DNA from: a virus
Virus record (IMG/VR): IMGVR_UViG_3300025087_002150
Length of the DNA: 45,063 nt
Direction: 5' to 3' (one strand)
Of this stretch, positions 1,590 to 38,994 are shown piece by piece. A program made the position numbers and the translations under genes. The notes below the pieces were generated by a model. It was not told the DNA's origin and searched no databases. It was given only the letters and a program-made list of their open reading frames with translations. Positions within the stretch are counted from its first letter, which is position 1; each line of letters opens with the position of its first letter.

Positions 1590-1835
1590 TCATCCTCGTT
1601 TATTTTCAAACTCTCCTGCACAAGTAGAACTTGCATTATGCCTATGATATTTACCTTTATTTTTATTTGAAACCTTGTGTTCCCACCCTTCGGCTATAGA
1701 TAAACATCTGTTTGAACACCACCCAGCAAACTCATGCTTATCTTTCTTCTCAGATTTAATGTTATAATATTGCCAAGTTTCAAAAGCCGCAAGCTCATAA
1801 CAATTCAGGCATCTTCCCTTTATTACTTTTTTCAT
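1590..1835 (-). CDS. Zn-finger protein
   Basis: CLNC...CSNRC; ATGA-coupled. Confidence 0.6.
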   Translation of the reverse strand: MKKVIKGRCLNCYELAAFETWQYYNIKSEKKDKHEFAGWCSNRCLSIAEGWEHKVSNKNKGKYHRHNASSTCAGEFENKRG

Positions 1836-2119
1836 CTTCTCCTCTCCTTCTTCCTAAGATAGTATGCCTTCTGGTATGCCTTATACTTGGCTGTCTTCTG
1901 ATATGCCTTCTGATATGCCTTCTGGTATGCCTTATACTTGGCTGTCTTCTGATATGCCTTCTGATATGCCTTCTGGTATGCCTTATACTTGGCTGTCTTC
2001 TGATATGCCTTCTGGTATGCCTTCAGGTATTCTCTTATGCACTTCTGCTTTCCGCAAGTCTTTTGGAATAACCACGGATTCTCTATTTTTCTGTTACAGA
2101 TTATGCAGTTTATTTTCAT
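1832..2119 (-). CDS. Zn-finger protein with expanded KAYQ/KTAKY basic repeat tail
   Basis: CIIC...TCGKQKC then ~3 copies of a 17-aa repeat; paralog at 38392..38574. Confidence 0.75.
   Translation of the reverse strand: MKINCIICNRKIENPWLFQKTCGKQKCIREYLKAYQKAYQKTAKYKAYQKAYQKAYQKTAKYKAYQKAYQKAYQKTAKYKAYQKAYYLRKKERRR
1862..2024. repeat. Intragenic tandem repeat, ~51-bp unit built from 12-bp TCTG(A/G)TATGCCT subunits
   Basis: Read directly; unit lengths are multiples of 3. Confidence 0.9.
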
Positions 2120-2170: not shown

Positions 2171-2452
2171 TCATCCTTCCTCTCCGAAAAGCTCTGCTTT
2201 TAGCTCTTTCAATTCTAAAACTCTTCCAGAGATTAATGCTCTGTTCCCTTCTGGAAGTTCTGCTTCTGTTAAGACTTCTTGATGAACACTTACCCTTAAA
2301 TCAACCTTCTCCCTCATCTTTATCAGGTGCGCAAGGTGGCGTTGAGTTGCGTTGAGAGTTCCTTTTTCGAAATCGCCTTCTTTCAATCCCATTTTACCTA
2401 TCATCTTATCTAGCTCCTCGCATTCCTTTTCAAGCTCTTTTATGGTTGTCAT
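2171..2452 (-). CDS. Paralog family A member 1 (MTTIKELEKE...QRHLAHL...ELKAELFGEEG)
   Basis: Start moved to MTTIKE (ATGA overlap with upstream stop); shares three blocks with 2790, 3513 and 38571 ORFs. Confidence 0.75.
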   Translation of the reverse strand: MTTIKELEKECEELDKMIGKMGLKEGDFEKGTLNATQRHLAHLIKMREKVDLRVSVHQEVLTEAELPEGNRALISGRVLELKELKAELFGEEG

Positions 2453-2790
2453 CTCAAGTCCCTCGCCCACCTTACCCCGAGCGCAGAATTCGGGACCAGC
2501 GGATACTTGCTGCAATCGAGGTCAACCCTGATGGAGCAGGCGACGAACCCCGCGACCAGTCCTTTTTCTTTATTCAATCTGAACGGCTGCGCGAAAAAGG
2601 AATCATTCCAGCCAGTGAACATCTTCAACTTTTCTGCATATTTGCTATTAGCTAGCCATACTACTTCGTTTATCCTCTGCATACGCCAGTCTTTAGGCTT
2701 GAGGCGCATGCACTCTTGATAAGTCTTACCTTTATGCAGAACTTCTGCGCTTACTTCTATCTTCAGTTCTGGTATTTTTATTGTTTTCAT
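2449..2790 (-). CDS. Small protein with DGR-target-like (CLec/FGE-type) C-terminus
   Basis: Ends VAGFVACSIRVDLDCSKYPLVPNSALGVRWAR, matching the xFxAxSxxxxLxCxxxPxxSxxxLGVRF pattern of DGR variable regions; start MKTIKIPELK via TAATG overlap. Confidence 0.6.
   Translation of the reverse strand: MKTIKIPELKIEVSAEVLHKGKTYQECMRLKPKDWRMQRINEVVWLANSKYAEKLKMFTGWNDSFFAQPFRLNKEKGLVAGFVACSIRVDLDCSKYPLVPNSALGVRWARDLR
2470..2556 (-). other. Putative DGR variable region (VR)
   Basis: Locally GC-rich; variable positions are NNC/NNT codons (GTC, TGC, ATC, GAC, GAT, AGC, TAT, GTC) derivable from AAC/AAT by A-only changes. Confidence 0.55.
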
Positions 2791-3083
2791 TATTTTTTGC
2801 CTCCTTCCTCTCCGAAAAGCTCTGCTTTTAATTGCAACTTTATTTTTGCACAAGCAATTCTTCTCCAGTTCATCTTTCCCTTGTGCTTTCTCTCTTCTGC
2901 TAAGATTCTTTCTTCAATCCAATCAGCATTTTCGACCTTCTCCCGCATCTCCTTCAGGTGTGCAAGGTGACGCTGAATTACCTTGAGAATTGCCATATCG
3001 ACATCGTCTTTTGTCCAGTGCCCGAAATCTATCTTTTTCTCAAGCTCCTTACATTCCTTCTCAAGTTCTTTTATTGTTGTCAT
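2790..3083 (-). CDS. Paralog family A member 2
   Basis: MTTIKELEKE...QRHLAHLKEMREKV...LKAELFGEEG. Confidence 0.75.
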   Translation of the reverse strand: MTTIKELEKECKELEKKIDFGHWTKDDVDMAILKVIQRHLAHLKEMREKVENADWIEERILAEERKHKGKMNWRRIACAKIKLQLKAELFGEEGGKK

Positions 3084-3117
3084 TTTTTAACTCCGAGATT
3101 ATCTCTTTCTCTTATCT

Positions 3118-3516
3118 TCATCCTTCTACTCCAAAAAGCTTTTTGTTTTTACCAAAATTCTTGAAAGTGTATTTATGGCAGTTTTTGCATAAGGTAATGC
3201 AATTTTCTTTATCAAATTCGAGCTCTGGATGGGATTTGACTGGCTTAATGTGATGCACTTCTAAAGCATAATCGTCCTTTGATTTAAATCCACATTTCTG
3301 ACAGGTAAATTTATCCCTTTCCCTGACTTCTCTTCTCACCACATTCCAGTCTTTTATTGTTGGCTTCACAAATTTTTCGAACACTTCATCAGAACATTCA
3401 TCCGAACAATATTTTTTACGATATTTCGGTAGAGATTTTTGGCAATAAGCACACCTTCCCTTTTCTTTTTGTTTAAAGTCACTCATTTTAAAGCCGATTG
3501 AATATTGTTGTCTCAT
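3118..3516 (-). CDS. HNH endonuclease with N-terminal Zn finger
   Basis: VRERDKFTCQKCG...LEVHHIKP...ENCITLCKNCH; N-terminal CAYC...CSDEC. Confidence 0.9.
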   Translation of the reverse strand: MRQQYSIGFKMSDFKQKEKGRCAYCQKSLPKYRKKYCSDECSDEVFEKFVKPTIKDWNVVRREVRERDKFTCQKCGFKSKDDYALEVHHIKPVKSHPELEFDKENCITLCKNCHKYTFKNFGKNKKLFGVEG

Positions 3517-3773
3517 CCTTCCTCTCCGAAAAGCTCTGCTTTGAGCTCATTTCTAATTTCCTTCCTTATATGCGCTTGCAGTTTAGCATATTTGAATTCA
3601 TGGCATGCGAAGAAAAAATCAATTTTCTTCCGTATCTCCTTCAGGTGCTCGAGGTGGCGCTTTGTTGCTTCTATCTTTCCTACAGCAACCCCAAAATCAT
3701 ATCTTCCAAGCAGTTCCCCCTTTGATTCTTCAAGCCTTTCTACTTCCTTTTCTAAAATATCAATTTCAATCAT
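3513..3773 (-). CDS. Paralog family A member 3
   Basis: MIEIDILEKE...KRHLEHLKEIRKK...ELKAELFGEEG; start inferred from ATGATTGA overlap. Confidence 0.7.
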   Translation of the reverse strand: MIEIDILEKEVERLEESKGELLGRYDFGVAVGKIEATKRHLEHLKEIRKKIDFFFACHEFKYAKLQAHIRKEIRNELKAELFGEEG

Positions 3774-3978
3774 CTCCATGCTCCCCCTTAATCCTATGGC
3801 AGAAACTGCATGACCATTCTGTTTTCCCATCTTTCCCATGTTCAGTAGTTCTTTTCATATCCCCGACATTAATATCAAATAATTTTCTACAGAACACACA
3901 TCTTTTAATATTACAATCACAATCGGATTCCTCTCGATGACAATGATTACAAAATAATTTAACAGTCCATCGGTTCAT
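3766..3978 (-). CDS. Cys-rich Zn-binding protein
   Basis: CNHC..CDC..CVFC..CSFC; paralog of 39544..39798. Confidence 0.7.
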   Translation of the reverse strand: MNRWTVKLFCNHCHREESDCDCNIKRCVFCRKLFDINVGDMKRTTEHGKDGKTEWSCSFCHRIKGEHGDD

Positions 3979-4606: not shown

Positions 4607-4812
4607 TTCAACTTAGCCTTTGCCTCCGCCATCTTCTTCTCAAGTTCCTTTATTTCGGTTTGTGCACTTTTCTTTTCTCTGTTAGCTACTATGTATCTAT
4701 TGCAGGCACTCTGAACCAGAGACTGATGATACCTTTTCTCAAGGGAAGTTATCCTCTTCATAATCTCCTTTATCATTCTATTTTCCCTTTCCTTGTCAGT
4801 TAATTTTCTCAT
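4603..4812 (-). CDS. Coiled-coil hypothetical protein
   Basis: Coupled ORF, heptad-like C-terminus. Confidence 0.6.
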   Translation of the reverse strand: MRKLTDKERENRMIKEIMKRITSLEKRYHQSLVQSACNRYIVANREKKSAQTEIKELEKKMAEAKAKLK

Positions 4813-5183
4813 CTTTCTTTACCTCCTTGAAGAATATTTTTAAATAAATCAATAACTTTTGTAAATTTTCCTTGTTTATCTAATACTTCATCTCCCGCCT
4901 CTAAATTTTCAATAGATTTAACTCCCTCTTTAGTAAATATTTTTGTTCCTTCAATCAAACATCGGTCTTTGAAGTATGGGGGAATTAAAGTTCCTTTAAG
5001 AAATCCTTTTTCTCCTATCTTAGTTCTGAAGACTATTGCCCTTTTTCCGCTTCTTTCTATCAGGCTTTCTAAGGTTGTGGTCTTCCCGCTTTCGTGGGCA
5101 AGTCCAGTAACGATTAGATGGGCTGGCGCAATATTAACCTCATCCCCAGTCTTCAATTCATATCCTAACTTTATTTGTTTCAT
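4809..5183 (-). pseudogene. HerA-like P-loop ATPase N-terminus fused to an intein N-terminal fragment (truncated or split)
   Basis: HLIVTGLAHESGKTT Walker A, then CLIEGTKIFTKEGVKSIENLEAGDEVLD (intein block A/N2); stops ~50 aa into the intein. Confidence 0.7.
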
Positions 5184-18186: not shown

Positions 18187-18528
18187 ATGGCAAAATTATT
18201 TAGTGGAGGAGATAAAGTACAAGGTTTCATAGCTTTCCTAAGCCTGCTTTTAATTTCATTGCAAATTTTTGCCCTGGTAGCACAATCTTTCGGCTGGCTG
18301 GAAAACATAAGACTTGGTGCTGGATTGATGCTAGTCATAATTGTAGGATTAATCCTCCTTGCTTTCGTAGCTGTTAGGGAGAGAGCATATCTTCAGGGAA
18401 GGGATATATTGATACTTATCTTAGCAGGAGCTTTAATGCTATTTTTGCTGTTTAAGTTACCTCAGCTAGTCCCTTCGATATTTTCACAAGCTATCAGTGA
18501 GCTGCAAAGTATGCTAGGAGTATCTTAG
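18187..18528 (+). CDS. Three-TM membrane protein
   Basis: Hydrophobic ORF. Confidence 0.7.
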   Translation: MAKLFSGGDKVQGFIAFLSLLLISLQIFALVAQSFGWLENIRLGAGLMLVIIVGLILLAFVAVRERAYLQGRDILILILAGALMLFLLFKLPQLVPSIFSQAISELQSMLGVS

Positions 18529-18600
18529 ATGAGCCCAAAAATCCCAATACGACAGCACATGAGCCACAGGGCAGGTCGGAGAGCCCCCGTAGCAGGGCAT
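18505..18600 (+). repeat. 96-bp perfect direct repeat, copy 1
   Basis: Identical to 23037..23132 by direct comparison. Confidence 0.9.
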
Positions 18601-18801
18601 ATCAGGAATATGCCCACTCATTCAAGATTAAGTTTTGGAAGAGGAACACTCGCAAGAAAAGCACGAGGGAAAGTTGCAGAAGACCTGAAGAGACTCCCAA
18701 GAAATAAAAGACCAAGAAATGTGCAGGCAACTTCAACTCAAATCGTCAAACAAGCTTCTCCAAAAGCAAGAATAAGACTTGCACGGAGGGGAATAATATA
18801 A
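18529..18801 (+). CDS. Arg/Lys-rich putative genome-condensing (core) protein, copy 1
   Basis: Strongly basic; RQH/GHIR motifs; first 24 aa identical to 23061..23330. Confidence 0.65.
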   Translation: MSPKIPIRQHMSHRAGRRAPVAGHIRNMPTHSRLSFGRGTLARKARGKVAEDLKRLPRNKRPRNVQATSTQIVKQASPKARIRLARRGII

Positions 18802-22964: not shown

Positions 22965-23036
22965 GATGAGAAAGAAAAAGCAGAAACCCAAGAAGCAATT
23001 ATATTAAATTGGAGTTATTTTAGGTCATTACCTCTT

Positions 23037-23132
23037 CAAAGTATGCTAGGAGTATCTTAGATGAGCCCAAAAATCCCAATACGACAGCACATGAGCCACA
23101 GGGCAGGTCGGAGAGCCCCCGTAGCAGGGCAT
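23037..23132 (+). repeat. 96-bp perfect direct repeat, copy 2
   Basis: Identical to 18505..18600. Confidence 0.9.
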
Positions 23133-23330
23133 CTGCGAGCAATTCCATCAAGAGCCTTTTTCGGAGTCATAAAATATGGCAAGAGAAAAGGAACTAAAGT
23201 CAGAGTCAATCCAAGAGAAGAAAAAACATTTCAACTCCAAAGTCCGAAGACAGGCAAAATCATAGCTGGAAGAGTCGGCTCACAATCTCTTAGACAGAGA
23301 ATTAGAATAGTTCGAACTATTAGCCCCTAG
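23061..23330 (+). CDS. Arg/Lys-rich putative core protein, copy 2
   Basis: Same N-terminal 24 aa as 18529..18801, unrelated basic C-terminus. Confidence 0.65.
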   Translation: MSPKIPIRQHMSHRAGRRAPVAGHLRAIPSRAFFGVIKYGKRKGTKVRVNPREEKTFQLQSPKTGKIIAGRVGSQSLRQRIRIVRTISP

Positions 23331-25596: not shown

Positions 25597-28500
25597 ATGA
25601 AAAAATATGGCAAGCTTAACTTAATTTTATTTCTTTTTCTTATTCTATCATCTTTTATTTTTCTGATATTTTTTGCAGAAACCCCAGATTCACAACAAAC
25701 GGGGGGCGCACAAGGTACTTTCCGCATCATAGATGAGAATACTTACGAATCCTGCATCATCCAGAATCAAGAGAAGCAATGCTCCTTCGTGCAGGGCGAG
25801 AGGCAATGGTTCAGAGATGCGAATGGCGAGTTCAAGGAGTTCACAGAGATAACGAATCTCTCTCTCGAAGGCAATCTATATGTGTATCGCTGGCAGGTGC
25901 AGAATCTTTCCCTTAACATCACCAGAAGATGCGAGGAAGACCCATATACTCCAGAGCTGTTCTGCTGGAATGAAACGAGCTACATCAATAATCCAATCAA
26001 TCAATCAATCACCATAGACCTCGGAGTAGTGCATAGCCTAGCAGGAGAAGTCTATGCTAGCCAATTCAATACCTTCTCTGGAAATAGGTTTGGAAAGGTG
26101 GTGAAGAACAAGAGATGGCAATTCAAGGATAATATCACAATCCCGGCAGGTCAAGCGACAAGAATACAGCAAGTCCTCTATCACATCGTGAACTCCAGCG
26201 TGCCAGCAAGGTATTCAAGCAATGGCGATAAAATGTATTTCGGGAATCTGTACATAGACTTTGGCGACCCAGCATATAATGTCACGATAATCAATTCTAC
26301 CAGAATCTCTATGAGAAACTGGACAGGCACGAACTTCGGAAAGCAGAGAATAGATATAGACCCGACAATAGCTCCCCAAGCCATAGAGGATGTATATACA
26401 TTCGTCTCTCCCGCCATCCCCGGAACAGAGCATGGTCATCAGGCATTTCTCAAGTTCAATATGACTTCTTTGCCTTCAGGAATCAAAATCACAGATGCCG
26501 CGCTCACACTCAATGCCACAGCTACAGGATTAAGCGGAGGAGCAACAATCGCAGTCTATAACTGCACTGCTGAATGGACAGAAGGAAGTGCCTATGCAAC
26601 AGTAGCTGGAATGCCTTGCACCATCAATTCTTGGAACTCTACTGCTGCATTGACGACCGGATTGAAGTACTGGAATGTCACCTCTATTATGGATGGATTA
26701 TACAAAGCTGGAGTAATAGGAAACATCTCTTTCAGGTTGAACGCAACAGCCGACACACAGGGAACAACCCTGAATGATGGCACAACTCTTAAGATAGGGA
26801 ATGGCGATACTGGAGGGTCGCCAAATGCCAATGTATGGACTGAGTTCCATTCCAGAGAAGCCACGCAAGACCAGCCAGCAACGCCATATCTGAATATTAC
26901 TTACCTCACATCGACAAGCATCTCCGCCTGCACAACTCTAGACATTCCCGGAATGGTCTACAACCTCACATCATCCATCACGAACAGCGCAACAAGCTAC
27001 TGCATCAATATAAGCACCAACAACATCACCCTTGATTGTGGAGGCAATACGATAGATGGGAATGATGTTGCTACTTACGGAATCTGGACTACCAATACAA
27101 GCGCAAAGAATTTCGGAAACATAACCATCCAGAACTGCAAGCTCACAGACTGGGCGAGAGCAGGAATCTACCTCGCAGCTATGGACAACAGCACTCTAAG
27201 ATGGCTTAATGTATCTTCTTCGGCAACGAATGGAATAAGGGTAATCAATTCTAACAATACGATAATAGAGCACATAAGAACAGAGTATTCTAATGGTGCA
27301 AGGGGGATAGATATGGCAGTCTCCAGCAACTTCTTACTCAATAATATCACTTCGTATGGGAACGGAGCAGATGGAATCCGTATCACAGGAACATCAGGAG
27401 CAGCAGGCAACTCGCAGGGCAGAGTGATAAATACTACGATATTATACAATGGTGGCAGGGGCTTGAGGTTAGACACTTTGTTTAATGTCTATATAAATAA
27501 TCTAAATTCCTCTCATAACGCCTTGGCTGGGATGGATTTCATTTCAGCAGACGGAAGTGTTCTTATCAATTCTACAATCAACCATAATCTCAGGGAAGGG
27601 ATAGCAGGCTCTTTCGGTGCAGATAAGATGAATATCTCTAATAACAATATAGTGAACAACTCATGGGCAGGAATCTCGCACCAGCCGACTTTCGGGTTCA
27701 GAAATGCTTTCATCTACAACAATTTCTTCAATAACTCAGTGAATGTGAATGTCTCAAATGTTGGTGCAGCAGGAACTGCCACATCATATAACTTCACGAA
27801 AGTGAATGGCACGAGAGTATATGGTGCAGGAGCTTTGCTCGGAGGGAATTACTGGGCGAACTGGACAGGAGGAGGCATAGGCTTCTCCCAATCCTGCGCA
27901 GATGCGAACTTTGATGGCTTCTGCGATGCGAATTATACATTGAATATCAATGGTTCAATAATAACAGCAGATTACCTTCCATATAGTGATGGCTATGATG
28001 ATGGTTTGCCATCCTTCGTAGAAATCCCTGCGACCATGGGGAATGCCTCAAATGTATCCAGCACTACAGCATACTTCAACATAACTGCCTTTGACTTGAC
28101 GACAGACATCAGCACTTGCTTCCTATCCATCTTTCTTCCAGGAACTACAGGACTTTCAAACAAGACCATGACCAAAGACCTTGTAAGCACAAATGTAACC
28201 TGCAACTCCACACAATCATTCAATCCTTTCTTCCAAGGCGCATTCACTTGGAAGTTCCTCGCCAATGATTCCTCCAACAATTGGAATCAGACATCTCTCT
28301 TCTCGGGAGTATTCGATAGCATCGCTCCATTCGTTGGCTACACAACACTCACTCCAGATAATGCCTCTACTTCCACAGGCTCAATCCTCGTGAATGCAAC
28401 ATCGGGAGATGAAACAACAGGCATAGCAAACCTCACCTTCACCCTGACAAATATCACAGGAAGTGACATGACAGAACTCAACAGGACTTTCATCTCTGGC

Positions 28501-29823
28501 TTCTACAACTACTCCCTGAATTTTACCTCCCTTGCGAGCGGCACATACTTGTTCAATGTCACAGCGACAGATTTCGCAGGGAATAAGAATACTACAGAGA
28601 GGAGGACTGTGACGATAAGTGCTGATTCTAATTTGCCTATTATTGAAATAATTTCCCCTACAATAGCTAATGCGACAAATACTTCGTTAACAACTTTTTA
28701 CTTCAACGCAACAATATGGGATGCGACAAGTAGTATAAGCTTCTGCCTTCTAGATTTAGATGCTGTAAATTTCACCATGACAAAGGCAAACAATCCTTCT
28801 GGTGCATCTAATGTTACCTGTAATTACACTGCAAGCGGACTTGCAGAAGGCAGACATCTCTGGAGCATCTCCGCAAACGACACGATTCCAAATGGGAATC
28901 GGACAGGCACGTTCCAATTCACGCAGGATACTATAAAACCTTTCATAGACTATATTGGTTTTACCCCTATAAATAATACAAATCTGACTAATGTAACTTC
29001 TATCTATGTAAATGCAACATCTTCTGATATGACGACAGGTATTGCTAATCTCACCTTTCTTTTAGTGAATATCTCTAACTCCTTTATGACAGAACTCAAC
29101 AGGACTTTCATCTATGGCTTCCACAACTATACACTAAATTTCACAAATTTGCTTAATGGGACTTATCTCTATAATATTACAGCATCTGATAATGCGGGAA
29201 ATAAGAACACTACAGAAAGAAGGACAATTACCATCAATACTACGATAGCCCCTGCGCCTCCGCCCCCTTCAGGAGGCACAGGAGGCTCTCCAGGAGCGAA
29301 TTACTCAGTAAATAAAACCAAAGAACCAGAATTTCTCATAATACTTGATACAAAGCCCTTGTGGTTTACTAGAGAGAAGAAGATGAAGCTTAACGTCATC
29401 TTCAGGTATGATAACTGGAGTTATGTTGATTCAAGTTATATAATAGGGACTTCTCCCCCAGACTTCAAATTCAAGGTTATTGGCGTAGAAAATCTAGGGG
29501 TTGGTAGGACAGATATTCTCTTCAATATCTCATCTGCCAGAGAAGGCAACTATAATGTGACTATCTATGCTAACTTCAAGTCAGAGACTATTAGTTTTGA
29601 AATCCTTGAATTGAAGGTTTTCGTTCTTGATTATATGGAAGGAATTGGCAGGAAGATAATGCCGAAGAATCCTAAGGTAGGATTTATATTGCTTCTAGTC
29701 ATCATACTCATAGCCCTCTATGTCTTGTTTACCAGCAGGCTTATTGAGAGGGGCTACAAGAAGGTCAGGAGAAAGTGGAAGCACCATAAAATTAAGGAGA
29801 GGATGGCAACTACACAGCAGTAA
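25597..29823 (+). CDS. Giant adhesin: CBM96-like module, right-handed beta-helix (NosD-like), Ig-like repeats, C-terminal TM
   Basis: AFLKFNMTSLPSG; ITLDCGGNTIDG; IYNNFFNN...GGNYW; duplicated Ig unit; dozens of NxS/T sequons. Confidence 0.85.
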   Translation: MKKYGKLNLILFLFLILSSFIFLIFFAETPDSQQTGGAQGTFRIIDENTYESCIIQNQEKQCSFVQGERQWFRDANGEFKEFTEITNLSLEGNLYVYRWQVQNLSLNITRRCEEDPYTPELFCWNETSYINNPINQSITIDLGVVHSLAGEVYASQFNTFSGNRFGKVVKNKRWQFKDNITIPAGQATRIQQVLYHIVNSSVPARYSSNGDKMYFGNLYIDFGDPAYNVTIINSTRISMRNWTGTNFGKQRIDIDPTIAPQAIEDVYTFVSPAIPGTEHGHQAFLKFNMTSLPSGIKITDAALTLNATATGLSGGATIAVYNCTAEWTEGSAYATVAGMPCTINSWNSTAALTTGLKYWNVTSIMDGLYKAGVIGNISFRLNATADTQGTTLNDGTTLKIGNGDTGGSPNANVWTEFHSREATQDQPATPYLNITYLTSTSISACTTLDIPGMVYNLTSSITNSATSYCINISTNNITLDCGGNTIDGNDVATYGIWTTNTSAKNFGNITIQNCKLTDWARAGIYLAAMDNSTLRWLNVSSSATNGIRVINSNNTIIEHIRTEYSNGARGIDMAVSSNFLLNNITSYGNGADGIRITGTSGAAGNSQGRVINTTILYNGGRGLRLDTLFNVYINNLNSSHNALAGMDFISADGSVLINSTINHNLREGIAGSFGADKMNISNNNIVNNSWAGISHQPTFGFRNAFIYNNFFNNSVNVNVSNVGAAGTATSYNFTKVNGTRVYGAGALLGGNYWANWTGGGIGFSQSCADANFDGFCDANYTLNINGSIITADYLPYSDGYDDGLPSFVEIPATMGNASNVSSTTAYFNITAFDLTTDISTCFLSIFLPGTTGLSNKTMTKDLVSTNVTCNSTQSFNPFFQGAFTWKFLANDSSNNWNQTSLFSGVFDSIAPFVGYTTLTPDNASTSTGSILVNATSGDETTGIANLTFTLTNITGSDMTELNRTFISGFYNYSLNFTSLASGTYLFNVTATDFAGNKNTTERRTVTISADSNLPIIEIISPTIANATNTSLTTFYFNATIWDATSSISFCLLDLDAVNFTMTKANNPSGASNVTCNYTASGLAEGRHLWSISANDTIPNGNRTGTFQFTQDTIKPFIDYIGFTPINNTNLTNVTSIYVNATSSDMTTGIANLTFLLVNISNSFMTELNRTFIYGFHNYTLNFTNLLNGTYLYNITASDNAGNKNTTERRTITINTTIAPAPPPPSGGTGGSPGANYSVNKTKEPEFLIILDTKPLWFTREKKMKLNVIFRYDNWSYVDSSYIIGTSPPDFKFKVIGVENLGVGRTDILFNISSAREGNYNVTIYANFKSETISFEILELKVFVLDYMEGIGRKIMPKNPKVGFILLLVIILIALYVLFTSRLIERGYKKVRRKWKHHKIKERMATTQQ

Positions 29824-35905: not shown

Positions 35906-37276
35906 TTAAATTATGCCTTCCCCCCCCTCTCTTTTAAATTCTTCTATCTTACTCAAGTCAACAAAATTCTCCGCAATTTTCACTACTTCATTTTCAAGAA
36001 CGCAAGAATTTAGAATCTTATATCTTTTTTCGTAACTAAATCCTCTTAGATTTCTACTATTGGAATAAATCTCATCAAATAATACTATTTTTGAAGGAAG
36101 CATATTTCTTAATTCCTCAAAACCGCTTTCCGAATGGACACGGCTCTGAATTTTATTAAAATCCCCATCCCTTGAGATTATTTCTCCTATAAAAATTGCA
36201 TCATTCGGGACTATACTTCTAATGATAGATTCAACTATCTCTGGGAATTTCCTTGTTATATCTCTCATTTCTCTATTATATAGTCTAACCTGCCTTCCTG
36301 TAAGCCTTACACAACATAAAATGCCATCATACTTTTGCTGGAATATCCATCTTCCATTTTCTATTAGATTATCTGTTTTATTGCACAGCATAAAGCCTAT
36401 TCTCTGAACATTTAATCTGTGGGAAATCTCGCTATCCTCAATACCAATCTTCTCTTTAAATTCTTTTGAATACGGATGGTCAGCATTTATAATTTCTCTA
36501 TCTATAATGTTCTTACTTTCTATTGTAGTCAGGTATTCTTTAATTCTATCGTCTTTTCTTTTAATAGTTAATATGTTACCGAACAAGAAATACAGCTTTA
36601 AGGCATTTCTATTATAAGTCCTTATAGAAGTAACTCCTTTATTATCATTAGCCTCGTAGAAAACTATTTTAAAATCGGTCAAGATTTTGCGAAGGAGTGA
36701 TAGAACTTTTCTATCTTTATTTGATAAACTAAGACCTAATATGCTCCTATCTCTGTCGTAAGTTACACACCCCTCGCTATCAAACATTCCTCTTAAAAAC
36801 TCAATTCCTTGCATATCATTTGTTAAGTCTAATCCATTAATCTTATCTATAAAAAACTCAACAACCTTCTTTCTACTACACGAATATTTGTATAAATCCT
36901 TCCCCCCAAAAGCGTTTTTGCTCTGGCTTATCCTCCTTATCTTTTCATCTATCTCCACGATACTTTCAAACTCCCTCTTAAATTTCTCTACAAACTCGTA
37001 ATCAGTAGCCATCAAGGCAACTTTATTGATTAATCCATTTTGATGTATAGTTCCATCTCCCATTAAAGTACCAATAACATAAAACAACGATTTTTCATCT
37101 AGTGGATATTTAAAGTGCGTTATCTTCAAATTTTTTAGACCTATTCTTTCCCTCACTTCTTTATTGAATTTACTTATCTTTCCTCTACTCATCAATTCGT
37201 TATACTTCTCAGTAGCGTTTTCTTTCTCTTTCTTACCCTGCATAAATAACCTTCTCTGCATCTGAAATTTTCCCAT
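35906..37276 (-). CDS. LAGLIDADG homing endonuclease fused to an ATP-dependent DNA ligase adenylation domain
   Basis: VIGTLMGDG and FLRGMFDSEG motifs; then QKYDG, LYNRE..DIT.KFPEI, IGEII, VLFDEI, EGII*. Confidence 0.85.
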   Translation of the reverse strand: MGKFQMQRRLFMQGKKEKENATEKYNELMSRGKISKFNKEVRERIGLKNLKITHFKYPLDEKSLFYVIGTLMGDGTIHQNGLINKVALMATDYEFVEKFKREFESIVEIDEKIRRISQSKNAFGGKDLYKYSCSRKKVVEFFIDKINGLDLTNDMQGIEFLRGMFDSEGCVTYDRDRSILGLSLSNKDRKVLSLLRKILTDFKIVFYEANDNKGVTSIRTYNRNALKLYFLFGNILTIKRKDDRIKEYLTTIESKNIIDREIINADHPYSKEFKEKIGIEDSEISHRLNVQRIGFMLCNKTDNLIENGRWIFQQKYDGILCCVRLTGRQVRLYNREMRDITRKFPEIVESIIRSIVPNDAIFIGEIISRDGDFNKIQSRVHSESGFEELRNMLPSKIVLFDEIYSNSRNLRGFSYEKRYKILNSCVLENEVVKIAENFVDLSKIEEFKREGGEGII

Positions 37277-38395: not shown

Positions 38396-38574
38396 CTTTC
38401 CTCCTTCTTCCTAAGATAGTATGTCTTCTGGTATGCCTTATATTTGGCCGTCTTCTGGTATGTCTTCTGGTTTTCCCTATGTCGTTCTCTTTGGCAGTTC
38501 AACTTTCCGCAAGTTTTCTGCCACAGGCTCGGATTCTCTATTTCCTTTTTACAGATTTTGCACTTTTTTTTCAT
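38392..38574 (-). CDS. Zn-finger protein, single-repeat paralog of 1832..2119
   Basis: MKKKCKICKKEIENPSLWQKTCGKLNC...QKTAKYKAYQKTYYLRKK; lies within track ORF 38392..38700. Confidence 0.7.
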   Translation of the reverse strand: MKKKCKICKKEIENPSLWQKTCGKLNCQRERHRENQKTYQKTAKYKAYQKTYYLRKKEER

Positions 38575-38846
38575 CCTTTCTCTCCGAAAAGCTCTTGTTC
38601 TACTATGGCGCAGAATCCAGCGAATCTGCCTTTTTGCTCTGGGTGCGTTTTCATCTGCCTTAGCTTCTCCCGCATCTCCTTCAGGTGGGTGAGGTGGCAC
38701 TGGGTTGCTTTAAGTTCTCCCTGTAACCTGTTAAGCTTACTTTCATAGAGAGTTACATTTATGAAATTTCCCTCTCTTAATCCTATTTTATCTATCTTCT
38801 TTTCAAGCTCCTGTTCTTTCTTCTCAAGTTCTTCAAAGGTAAGCAT
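38571..38846 (-). CDS. Paralog family A member 4
   Basis: EELEKKEQELEKKID...TQCHLTHLKEMREK...ELFGEKG. Confidence 0.75.
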   Translation of the reverse strand: MLTFEELEKKEQELEKKIDKIGLREGNFINVTLYESKLNRLQGELKATQCHLTHLKEMREKLRQMKTHPEQKGRFAGFCAIVEQELFGEKG

Positions 38847-38994
38847 CTTTTATTTCCTCCTCTATTCTTATTCTCCTATATTGATATTCATCCAAATTAT
38901 AAGTTCCAGTTGGATATATACACCGCATTATTCGGCTCATTAACTTTGAGACCTTCTTTTCCTTCTCAAGTTCTTTTATTGTTTTCATTTTCAT
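38833..38994 (-). CDS. 53-aa protein with the family A N-terminal block only
   Basis: MKMKTIKELEKEK then unrelated sequence. Confidence 0.5.
   Translation of the reverse strand: MKMKTIKELEKEKKVSKLMSRIMRCIYPTGTYNLDEYQYRRIRIEEEIKDAYL

Follow-up and report, generated by a model that had tools for sequence, protein, structure and literature searches.

A virus-like element of DPANN archaea carries an orphan DGR variable gene, and the variable region (VR) of that gene is built on the same backbone as VRs that lie in unrelated cellular genes of Nanoarchaeota UBA10106. We lean toward reading this gene as the frozen product of cross-replicon retrohoming, for which the template was either the same as that of the putative host or a sibling of it. 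To our knowledge, prokaryotes have no natural system of targeted protein hypermutation besides DGRs, which tend to be regarded as self-contained cassettes.

The window, i.e., the whole stretch of 45,063 nt analyzed here (IMG/VR record IMGVR_UViG_3300025087_002150), bears the target gene on its minus strand, with an ATG at 2790 and a TGA at 2451-2449 (Table 1). The encoded protein ends in ...VAGFVACSIRVDLDCSKYPLVPNSALGVRWARDLR. The TGA of the target and the ATG of the gene that follows overlap as ATGA, and through this overlap the downstream gene is translationally coupled to the target stop. The downstream gene itself is one of the small paralogs located at 2171-2452, 2790-3083, 3513-3839, and ~38570-38850 (-), which have common N-terminal, middle and C-terminal blocks and end in AELFGEEG; the junction motif repeated among them consists of a stop, an RBS and the next start. 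Further along, the gene at 1832-2119 (-) contains tandem 51-nt repeats (1829-2127) encoding AYQKAYQKTAKYK units. Their copy number is sample-dependent, with a product of 95 aa in contig L001 and 78 aa in contig L002, while the gene was not called in L006.

An earlier note on this DNA, made from its letters and open reading frames, had placed the target among early genes and not among tail fibres, and this early, non-structural setting holds. It had also pointed out that the last ~30 codons become abruptly GC-rich. Measurement agreed, as the GC content over the final ~110 nt of the gene is 0.60-0.67, up from 0.27-0.50. What did not stand is the jump as a peculiarity of this gene, because VR backbones avoid adenine and the same rise is met in other family members (VRs of 0.54-0.56 within genes of 0.24-0.30). 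The GC jump was consequently rejected as a sign of foreign origin; it is a family trait. Concerning the variable residues, the codons listed at the time (GTC, TGC, ATC, GAC, GAT, AGC, TAT, CTG, and GTC) are present in the gene. The respective template codons, as implied by five sibling VRs described below, are GAC, AAC, AAC, AAC, AAT, AAC, AAT, CAG, and AAC; therefore the proposal that the variable codons can be reached by A-only substitutions was confirmed.

Table 1. Features of the window related to the orphan target and to its link with UBA10106
Feature	Position	Strand	Remarks
DGR variable-protein gene	2449..2790	-	ORF; 113 aa; single predicted C-type-lectin-fold domain
VR, 85 nt, codons 79-106	2473..2557	-	aligns at 82-84% to three UBA10106 VRs
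Template-copied VR core	2478-2556	-	within VR 2473-2557
3' VR junction, IMH-like G-rich motif, CTCGGGGTA then AGGTGGGCGAGGG	2460..2481	-	
Downstream gene, 93 aa, small paralog family member	2171..2452	-	repeat families D5-D8
Second link to UBA10106, in 1408-aa beta-helix/NosD/Ig surface-protein gene (25597-29823)	26959..28617	+	

Sequence searches of Pfam and PDB gave no match for the target protein. A profile search led to a family of more than 553 proteins of ~110-160 aa, represented by 72 cluster representatives in an exhaustive HMMER search, and those members that bear names come from Pacearchaeota or Paceibacterota bins. In the family alignment the C-terminal part has a fixed backbone (G-Y-V-A-x-F-x-A-x-S-x-x-A-x-L-x-C...P-x-x-S-x-S-x-L-G-V-R-F-x-R), and the variable positions between the backbone residues are filled by N, D, S, Y, G, C, and F. 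The residue after V-A is mainly R, G or W, which fits an AGG template codon. Adenine-wise variation was expected of the homologs, and the alignment displays it as adenine-type hypervariable sites on an unchanging backbone. An AlphaFold (AF2) model of the target, built on the same alignment, reached a pLDDT of 94 and a pTM of 0.85. Foldseek matches were weak (E-values of 0.1 or more), the leading ones being C-type-lectin-like. Folds were also ranked by the exhaustive structure aligner VIA-align, and all of the 50 best matches listed have the CLec fold that had been anticipated for this gene. They include the C-terminal domain of Bd2740 from Bdellovibrio (8oks, Z 10.1), the C-terminal domain of Legionella Lcl (DUF1566, 8q4e, Z 9.2), Mtd of the Bordetella phage (1yu0, Z 9.1 with 111 residues aligned) and TvpA of Treponema denticola (2y3c, Z 8.8), while FGE-like enzymes rank below these four. 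According to this confident model, the target is a C-type-lectin-fold variable protein.

Three relatives on long contigs (L014, L015, and L016) possess complete DGRs. Their contigs resemble those of viruses in bearing MCM, D5 primase and integrase genes together with numerous tiny ORFs. A reverse transcriptase (RT) of ~350 aa with the RVT_1 domain lies 20-600 nt from the target in 3/3 of them, and the template (TR) is found just upstream of the RT. In every case TR and VR differ only at TR adenines. Since the relatives carry RT and TR side by side, this is a genuine DGR target family, and the original description of 2449-2790 as a DGR-type variable gene gains support from them. Additionally, two of the three relatives have a second target of the small family (L015:9423-9881 and L016:9089-9571), each with its own VR that matches the same template as the first target.

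The relatives also define where a VR begins and ends. Their TR-VR match starts at the Val codon of V-A-[RGW]-F and stops at CTCG, after which the VR continues with GGGTA and the template with AAATA or GAATA. Every VR of both families (the second one is presented below) is closed by CTCGGGGTA, which in the window occupies 2473-2481, and the TRs of the relatives read CTCGAAATA or CTCGGAATA at the place where the VRs read CTCGGGGTA. An IMH-type 3' junction of the kind that tells VR from TR thus appears in the window, to judge by its letters. Past GGGGTA, the window reads AGGT as in the small family and not CGTG as in the host pattern. A hairpin downstream of the VR is present in the host locus L064 (-8.5, z -2.2) and in the relative L014 (-9.1, z -2.7); none was found downstream of the window VR (-2.3 kcal/mol, z +0.56). 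It is also absent in L015, a relative with an intact DGR, and therefore the hairpin is not universal in this lineage.

Neither an RT ORF nor a second copy of the variable segment had been noticed in the window initially, and dedicated searches agreed on both counts. An adenine-tolerant sliding scan of both strands found no TR or second copy in the window other than the VR itself, and the VR was likewise the only return from IUPAC patterns with up to 3 mismatches and from 40-nt pieces of the inferred template. No RT was detected by Pfam on 20 of the 26 listed ORFs of at least 150 aa (most of the other 6 overlap scanned genes in another strand or frame), nor by tblastn with three DGR RTs as queries against the six frames of the 45-kb window. 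The UBA10106 MAG gave no RVT_1 match, no DGR RT match and no template-like sequence. The backbone pattern had no match in IMG/VR, and its 8 matches in JGI contigs were all VRs, with no TR among them. A codon-relaxed template pattern derived from the window matched nothing in IMG/VR or the JGI contigs; this pattern would miss the host template because the window has three non-adenine changes. All these TR and RT searches cover assembled contigs. The check proposed in the earlier note, a TR homolog in the same metagenomes, was successful in part: VRs of the same backbone were recovered there from a Nanoarchaeote, and a cognate TR beside an RT was not found. As no TR or RT for this backbone was retrieved, a sibling template is indistinguishable from the host's own.

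The window contains other repeats and mobile features. A 99-nt direct repeat with 99% identity between its copies (18502-18600 and 23034-23132) was considered as a TR/VR pair and rejected, being the shared N-terminus of paralogs. Within the repeat lie the end of one gene and, in two paralogs that code for small basic proteins (18529-18801 and 23061-23330), the first ~24 codons; the two copies bracket a 4.5-kb block of surface-protein genes. Two intein-type elements are located on the minus strand; the one at 4809-5183 consists of a P-loop fragment and then a Hint_2 start (E = 5.8e-6), and the one at 35906-37276 is an ATP-dependent DNA ligase with a LAGLIDADG domain. Finally, positions 1-131 hold tandem 12-nt CCAAGCCC-type repeats inside the left-end gene. 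Some assemblies continue through these repeats for 565 nt or more; the element therefore exceeds the window in length, and the two window ends do not close it.

The backbone of the viral VR was found again in cells. Contigs of four groundwater runs were aligned to 2200-3100 at a likeness threshold of 80%, and in each run two or three other contigs align to exactly 2473-2557, with 14-15 differences from the window and with flanks unlike it. Such host-type VR contigs are present in all four examined runs that hold the virus, at depths uncoupled from that of the element (15-28x vs. 4x; 18-21x vs. 207x). A short query from the loose contig ends led to a second protein family of 214-301 aa, ending in ...L-Y-Y-W-x-P-K-D-G-R-V-A-G-F-V-A..., and a scan of species genomes located 45 loci of this large family in Nano-, Woese-, and Pacearchaeota MAGs. 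At many of them, an RT with 50-60% identity to those of L014-L016 lies at a distance of 0.4-1 kb from the target. The best genome was that of Nanoarchaeota UBA10106, with three copies on separate contigs; no RT lies within 10 kb of its at least three targets. The backbone pattern added eight VR matches in JGI contigs that reach 262 kb in length; one of these matches comes from a JGI sample that also contains a copy of the window, and another is in a third protein architecture (L076). The latter (L076:120-947, minus strand, contig ORJL010214895.1) is a 275-aa protein that combines the same VR backbone with an unrelated N-terminal part, and it also has the C-terminal tail and the GCGCC-GAA-GGCGC hairpin of the C7-type target of UBA10106. 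Given this shared cassette on an unrelated N-terminus, VR cassettes appear to have moved between genes.

Comparison of the window VR with five distinct VRs of the UBA10106 lineage showed a backbone identical at 63/66 positions, the host VRs being identical among themselves at 66/66. Across the six same-backbone VRs 19 sites vary, each of them a first or second codon position, and at most of these an A occurs in at least one of the copies. At these adenine-templated sites the window agrees with any host VR in only 5-8 of the 19. Outside the block, identity between the window and the host VRs falls to random level (16/58 upstream, 10-12/40 downstream), and the boundaries of the shared block are those of the TR-VR match in the relatives. 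The inferred template reads V-A-G-F-D-A-N-S-N-R-A-N-L-N-C-N-[KR]-N-P-Q-N-S-N-S-A-L. Among ~800 sampled DPANN genomes of the same class and order the best backbone identity was 77-86%, and no closer backbone was found in the samples of the UBA10106 family, order and class. The low agreement with the known host VRs at the variable sites marks the window VR as an independent mutagenised product, and we conclude from the compared sequences that the template of the cellular VRs, or a sibling of it, gave rise to this VR through independent copying with mutagenesis of the adenines.

A second link with UBA10106 lies in a surface-protein gene of the element (Table 1). The linked stretch has 82% nucleotide identity over 1.67 kb with G001:C42:1600-3270 of UBA10106, and its product is 78% identical to that of the C42 gene over 659 aa. 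The C42 counterpart is partial (at least 1180 aa) and has a second tandem copy there with 69% identity, while the rest of the 20.8-kb contig C42 presents no further match with the window. When the whole 45 kb was compared with the UBA10106 MAG, this stretch was the only shared segment besides the VR. It suggests that virus and host exchanged an adhesin-like module, and UBA10106-type cells are likely the host of the virus.

For the origin of the viral VR we propose mutagenic retrohoming. An RT would have copied a TR into cDNA with the template adenines randomised, and this cDNA would have taken the place of the target sequence that runs from the Val codon of VAGF to the GGGGTA motif, so that the last 26 codons of the target would be the VR thus installed. 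The template used would not be one of the virus's own within the window; it is probably identical with the template behind the five or more VRs that reside in unrelated cellular genes of UBA10106, or else a close sibling of that template. We infer the direction and the mode of this transfer: a template of cellular type would have served to rewrite a viral gene, in trans while an infection was under way or following the transient capture of a cassette. Since then the viral VR would have been frozen as an orphan relic. A further step, possible in our opinion and well short of probable, is that a Nanoarchaeote DGR writes into a gene of its virus, or that the virus exploits the retroelement of its host in order to diversify its own binding protein. 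Targets on two replicons whose interests are opposed would in that case depend on a single template.

The viral VR could still be an active target in trans, which a DGR of the host or of a co-resident element continues to rewrite while one allele dominates the sampled population; we regard this as rather doubtful. The backbone that the viral VR shares with the host VRs and the conserved GGGGTA junction would agree with it, and so would a host DGR that seems recently active, as most of the differences between host protein P0204 and 12 other proteins of its cluster fall in the VR, and 3 VR residues are all that distinguishes P0197 from P0212. In published experiments, moreover, avd, TR and RT supplied on a plasmid were shown to act in trans (Wu et al., 2018, PMC5758913). 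However, at least 23 contigs, which stem from several studies, encode one and the same target protein sequence, this sequence is alone in its 90% cluster, family searches returned no variant, and a single VR allele was seen in all assemblies, the four runs included (these are consensus contigs, in which minority variants would be invisible). Three transitions at non-adenine positions separate the host backbone from the window (codon 89 GCT->GTT, codon 95 AGG->AAG, and codon 100 TCG->CCG), and a fresh copy of the host template, whose VRs agree at 66/66, would erase them. The lack of a hairpin downstream of the viral VR also speaks against ongoing rewriting. Host VRs are themselves mostly identical between assemblies, and hence the single viral allele is weak evidence of inactivity. 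Taken together, the viral VR leans to being static, a relic whose present inactivity we infer. Of the alternatives offered at the outset for this orphan target, either a fossil or a target that the DGR of a host or co-infecting element diversifies in trans, the evidence leans to the former.

Could the virus instead own an RT and a TR outside the window, so that the target is non-adjacent in cis? The window is incomplete, with contig L001 extending 565 nt past its left end without meeting the right end, and non-adjacent targets are known within prophages (PMC5758913). Sequencing depth makes such a cassette improbable. In run X3 the element has a depth of 207x, the extra depth over the VR is 39-43x, and host-type contigs (21.1 + 18.3 + 3.9x) account for all of it; therefore no template-like contig exists at the 207x of the element, which speaks against a template on the virus. 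With an expected identity of ~84-87%, a viral TR should moreover have passed the 80% threshold, the 45 kb are devoid of an RT, and in all three relatives RT and TR lie no further than 1.7 kb from the target. Even less probable is plain DNA recombination or gene conversion, by which a host VR would have entered the viral gene with no reverse transcription. DNA exchange between virus and host did occur, as the 82% identical segment of 1.67 kb attests, and short identities flank the VR; yet no sampled host VR fits the variable sites of the viral one (5-8/19), and the boundaries of the block coincide with those of the TR. Lastly, a chance or compositional artefact, with no DGR involved, would explain why the window has no TR or RT, but it is hardly credible and is refuted by the family, the fold, the RT and TR of the relatives, and the backbone identity.

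A viral VR with the backbone of a cellular VR set implies that templates were used or exchanged across replicons, between a DPANN archaeon and its putative virus. A limited literature search returned no earlier description of a viral VR with a cellular template backbone. Remote targets across phage and host have been argued to be unexpected, on the grounds that such targets are not inherited together (Wu et al., 2018, PMC5758913), and large DGR surveys were unable to detect remote targets (Roux et al., 2021, PMC8144416). If confirmed, our case would mean that retrohoming, with a specificity set by the IMH plus short 5' homology, leaves room for cross-talk under natural conditions, and that viral binding proteins have an added evolutionary route. 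For DPANN viruses, CRISPR-spacer links to hosts are often unavailable, and shared VR backbones would be a possible new sequence signal for pairing uncultured viruses of this kind with their hosts. Apart from the origin of the viral VR, two unannotated CLec target families are defined here, one of more than 550 small proteins and one of cellular proteins of 214-301 aa.

Among known systems, Mtd and TvpA have the same fold as the target over the whole of its 113 aa, and they also share the C-terminal VR, the variable residues set on a fixed backbone, and a G-V-R-x-x-R type motif at the end. Unlike them, the target is much smaller, a bare 113-aa domain with no Pfam family match, and it has no cognate TR or RT in cis. 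It also differs from DGR targets that are tail fibres or lipoproteins, as it sits among early, non-structural viral genes. The C-terminal domains of Lcl and Bd2740 are compact CLec variants of similar size, although the likeness is structural, without a match to the target at the sequence level. In Treponema denticola, seven DGR targets are known that exemplify remote or non-adjacent targets (Wu et al., 2018, PMC5758913). There, as in UBA10106 with its at least three targets, one template corresponds to several VRs in distant unrelated genes, whereas the set of VRs described here spans a cell and a separate replicon. The DGRs of DPANN archaea and archaeal viruses (Paul et al., 2015, PMC4372165) come from the same host group and type of habitat, and the relatives L014-L016 resemble them in that each is a typical cassette, with target, TR and RT together on a contig of viral type. 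In contrast to those, the viral target presented here either lost its own cassette or never had one, and it carries the backbone of the VRs of a cellular genome.
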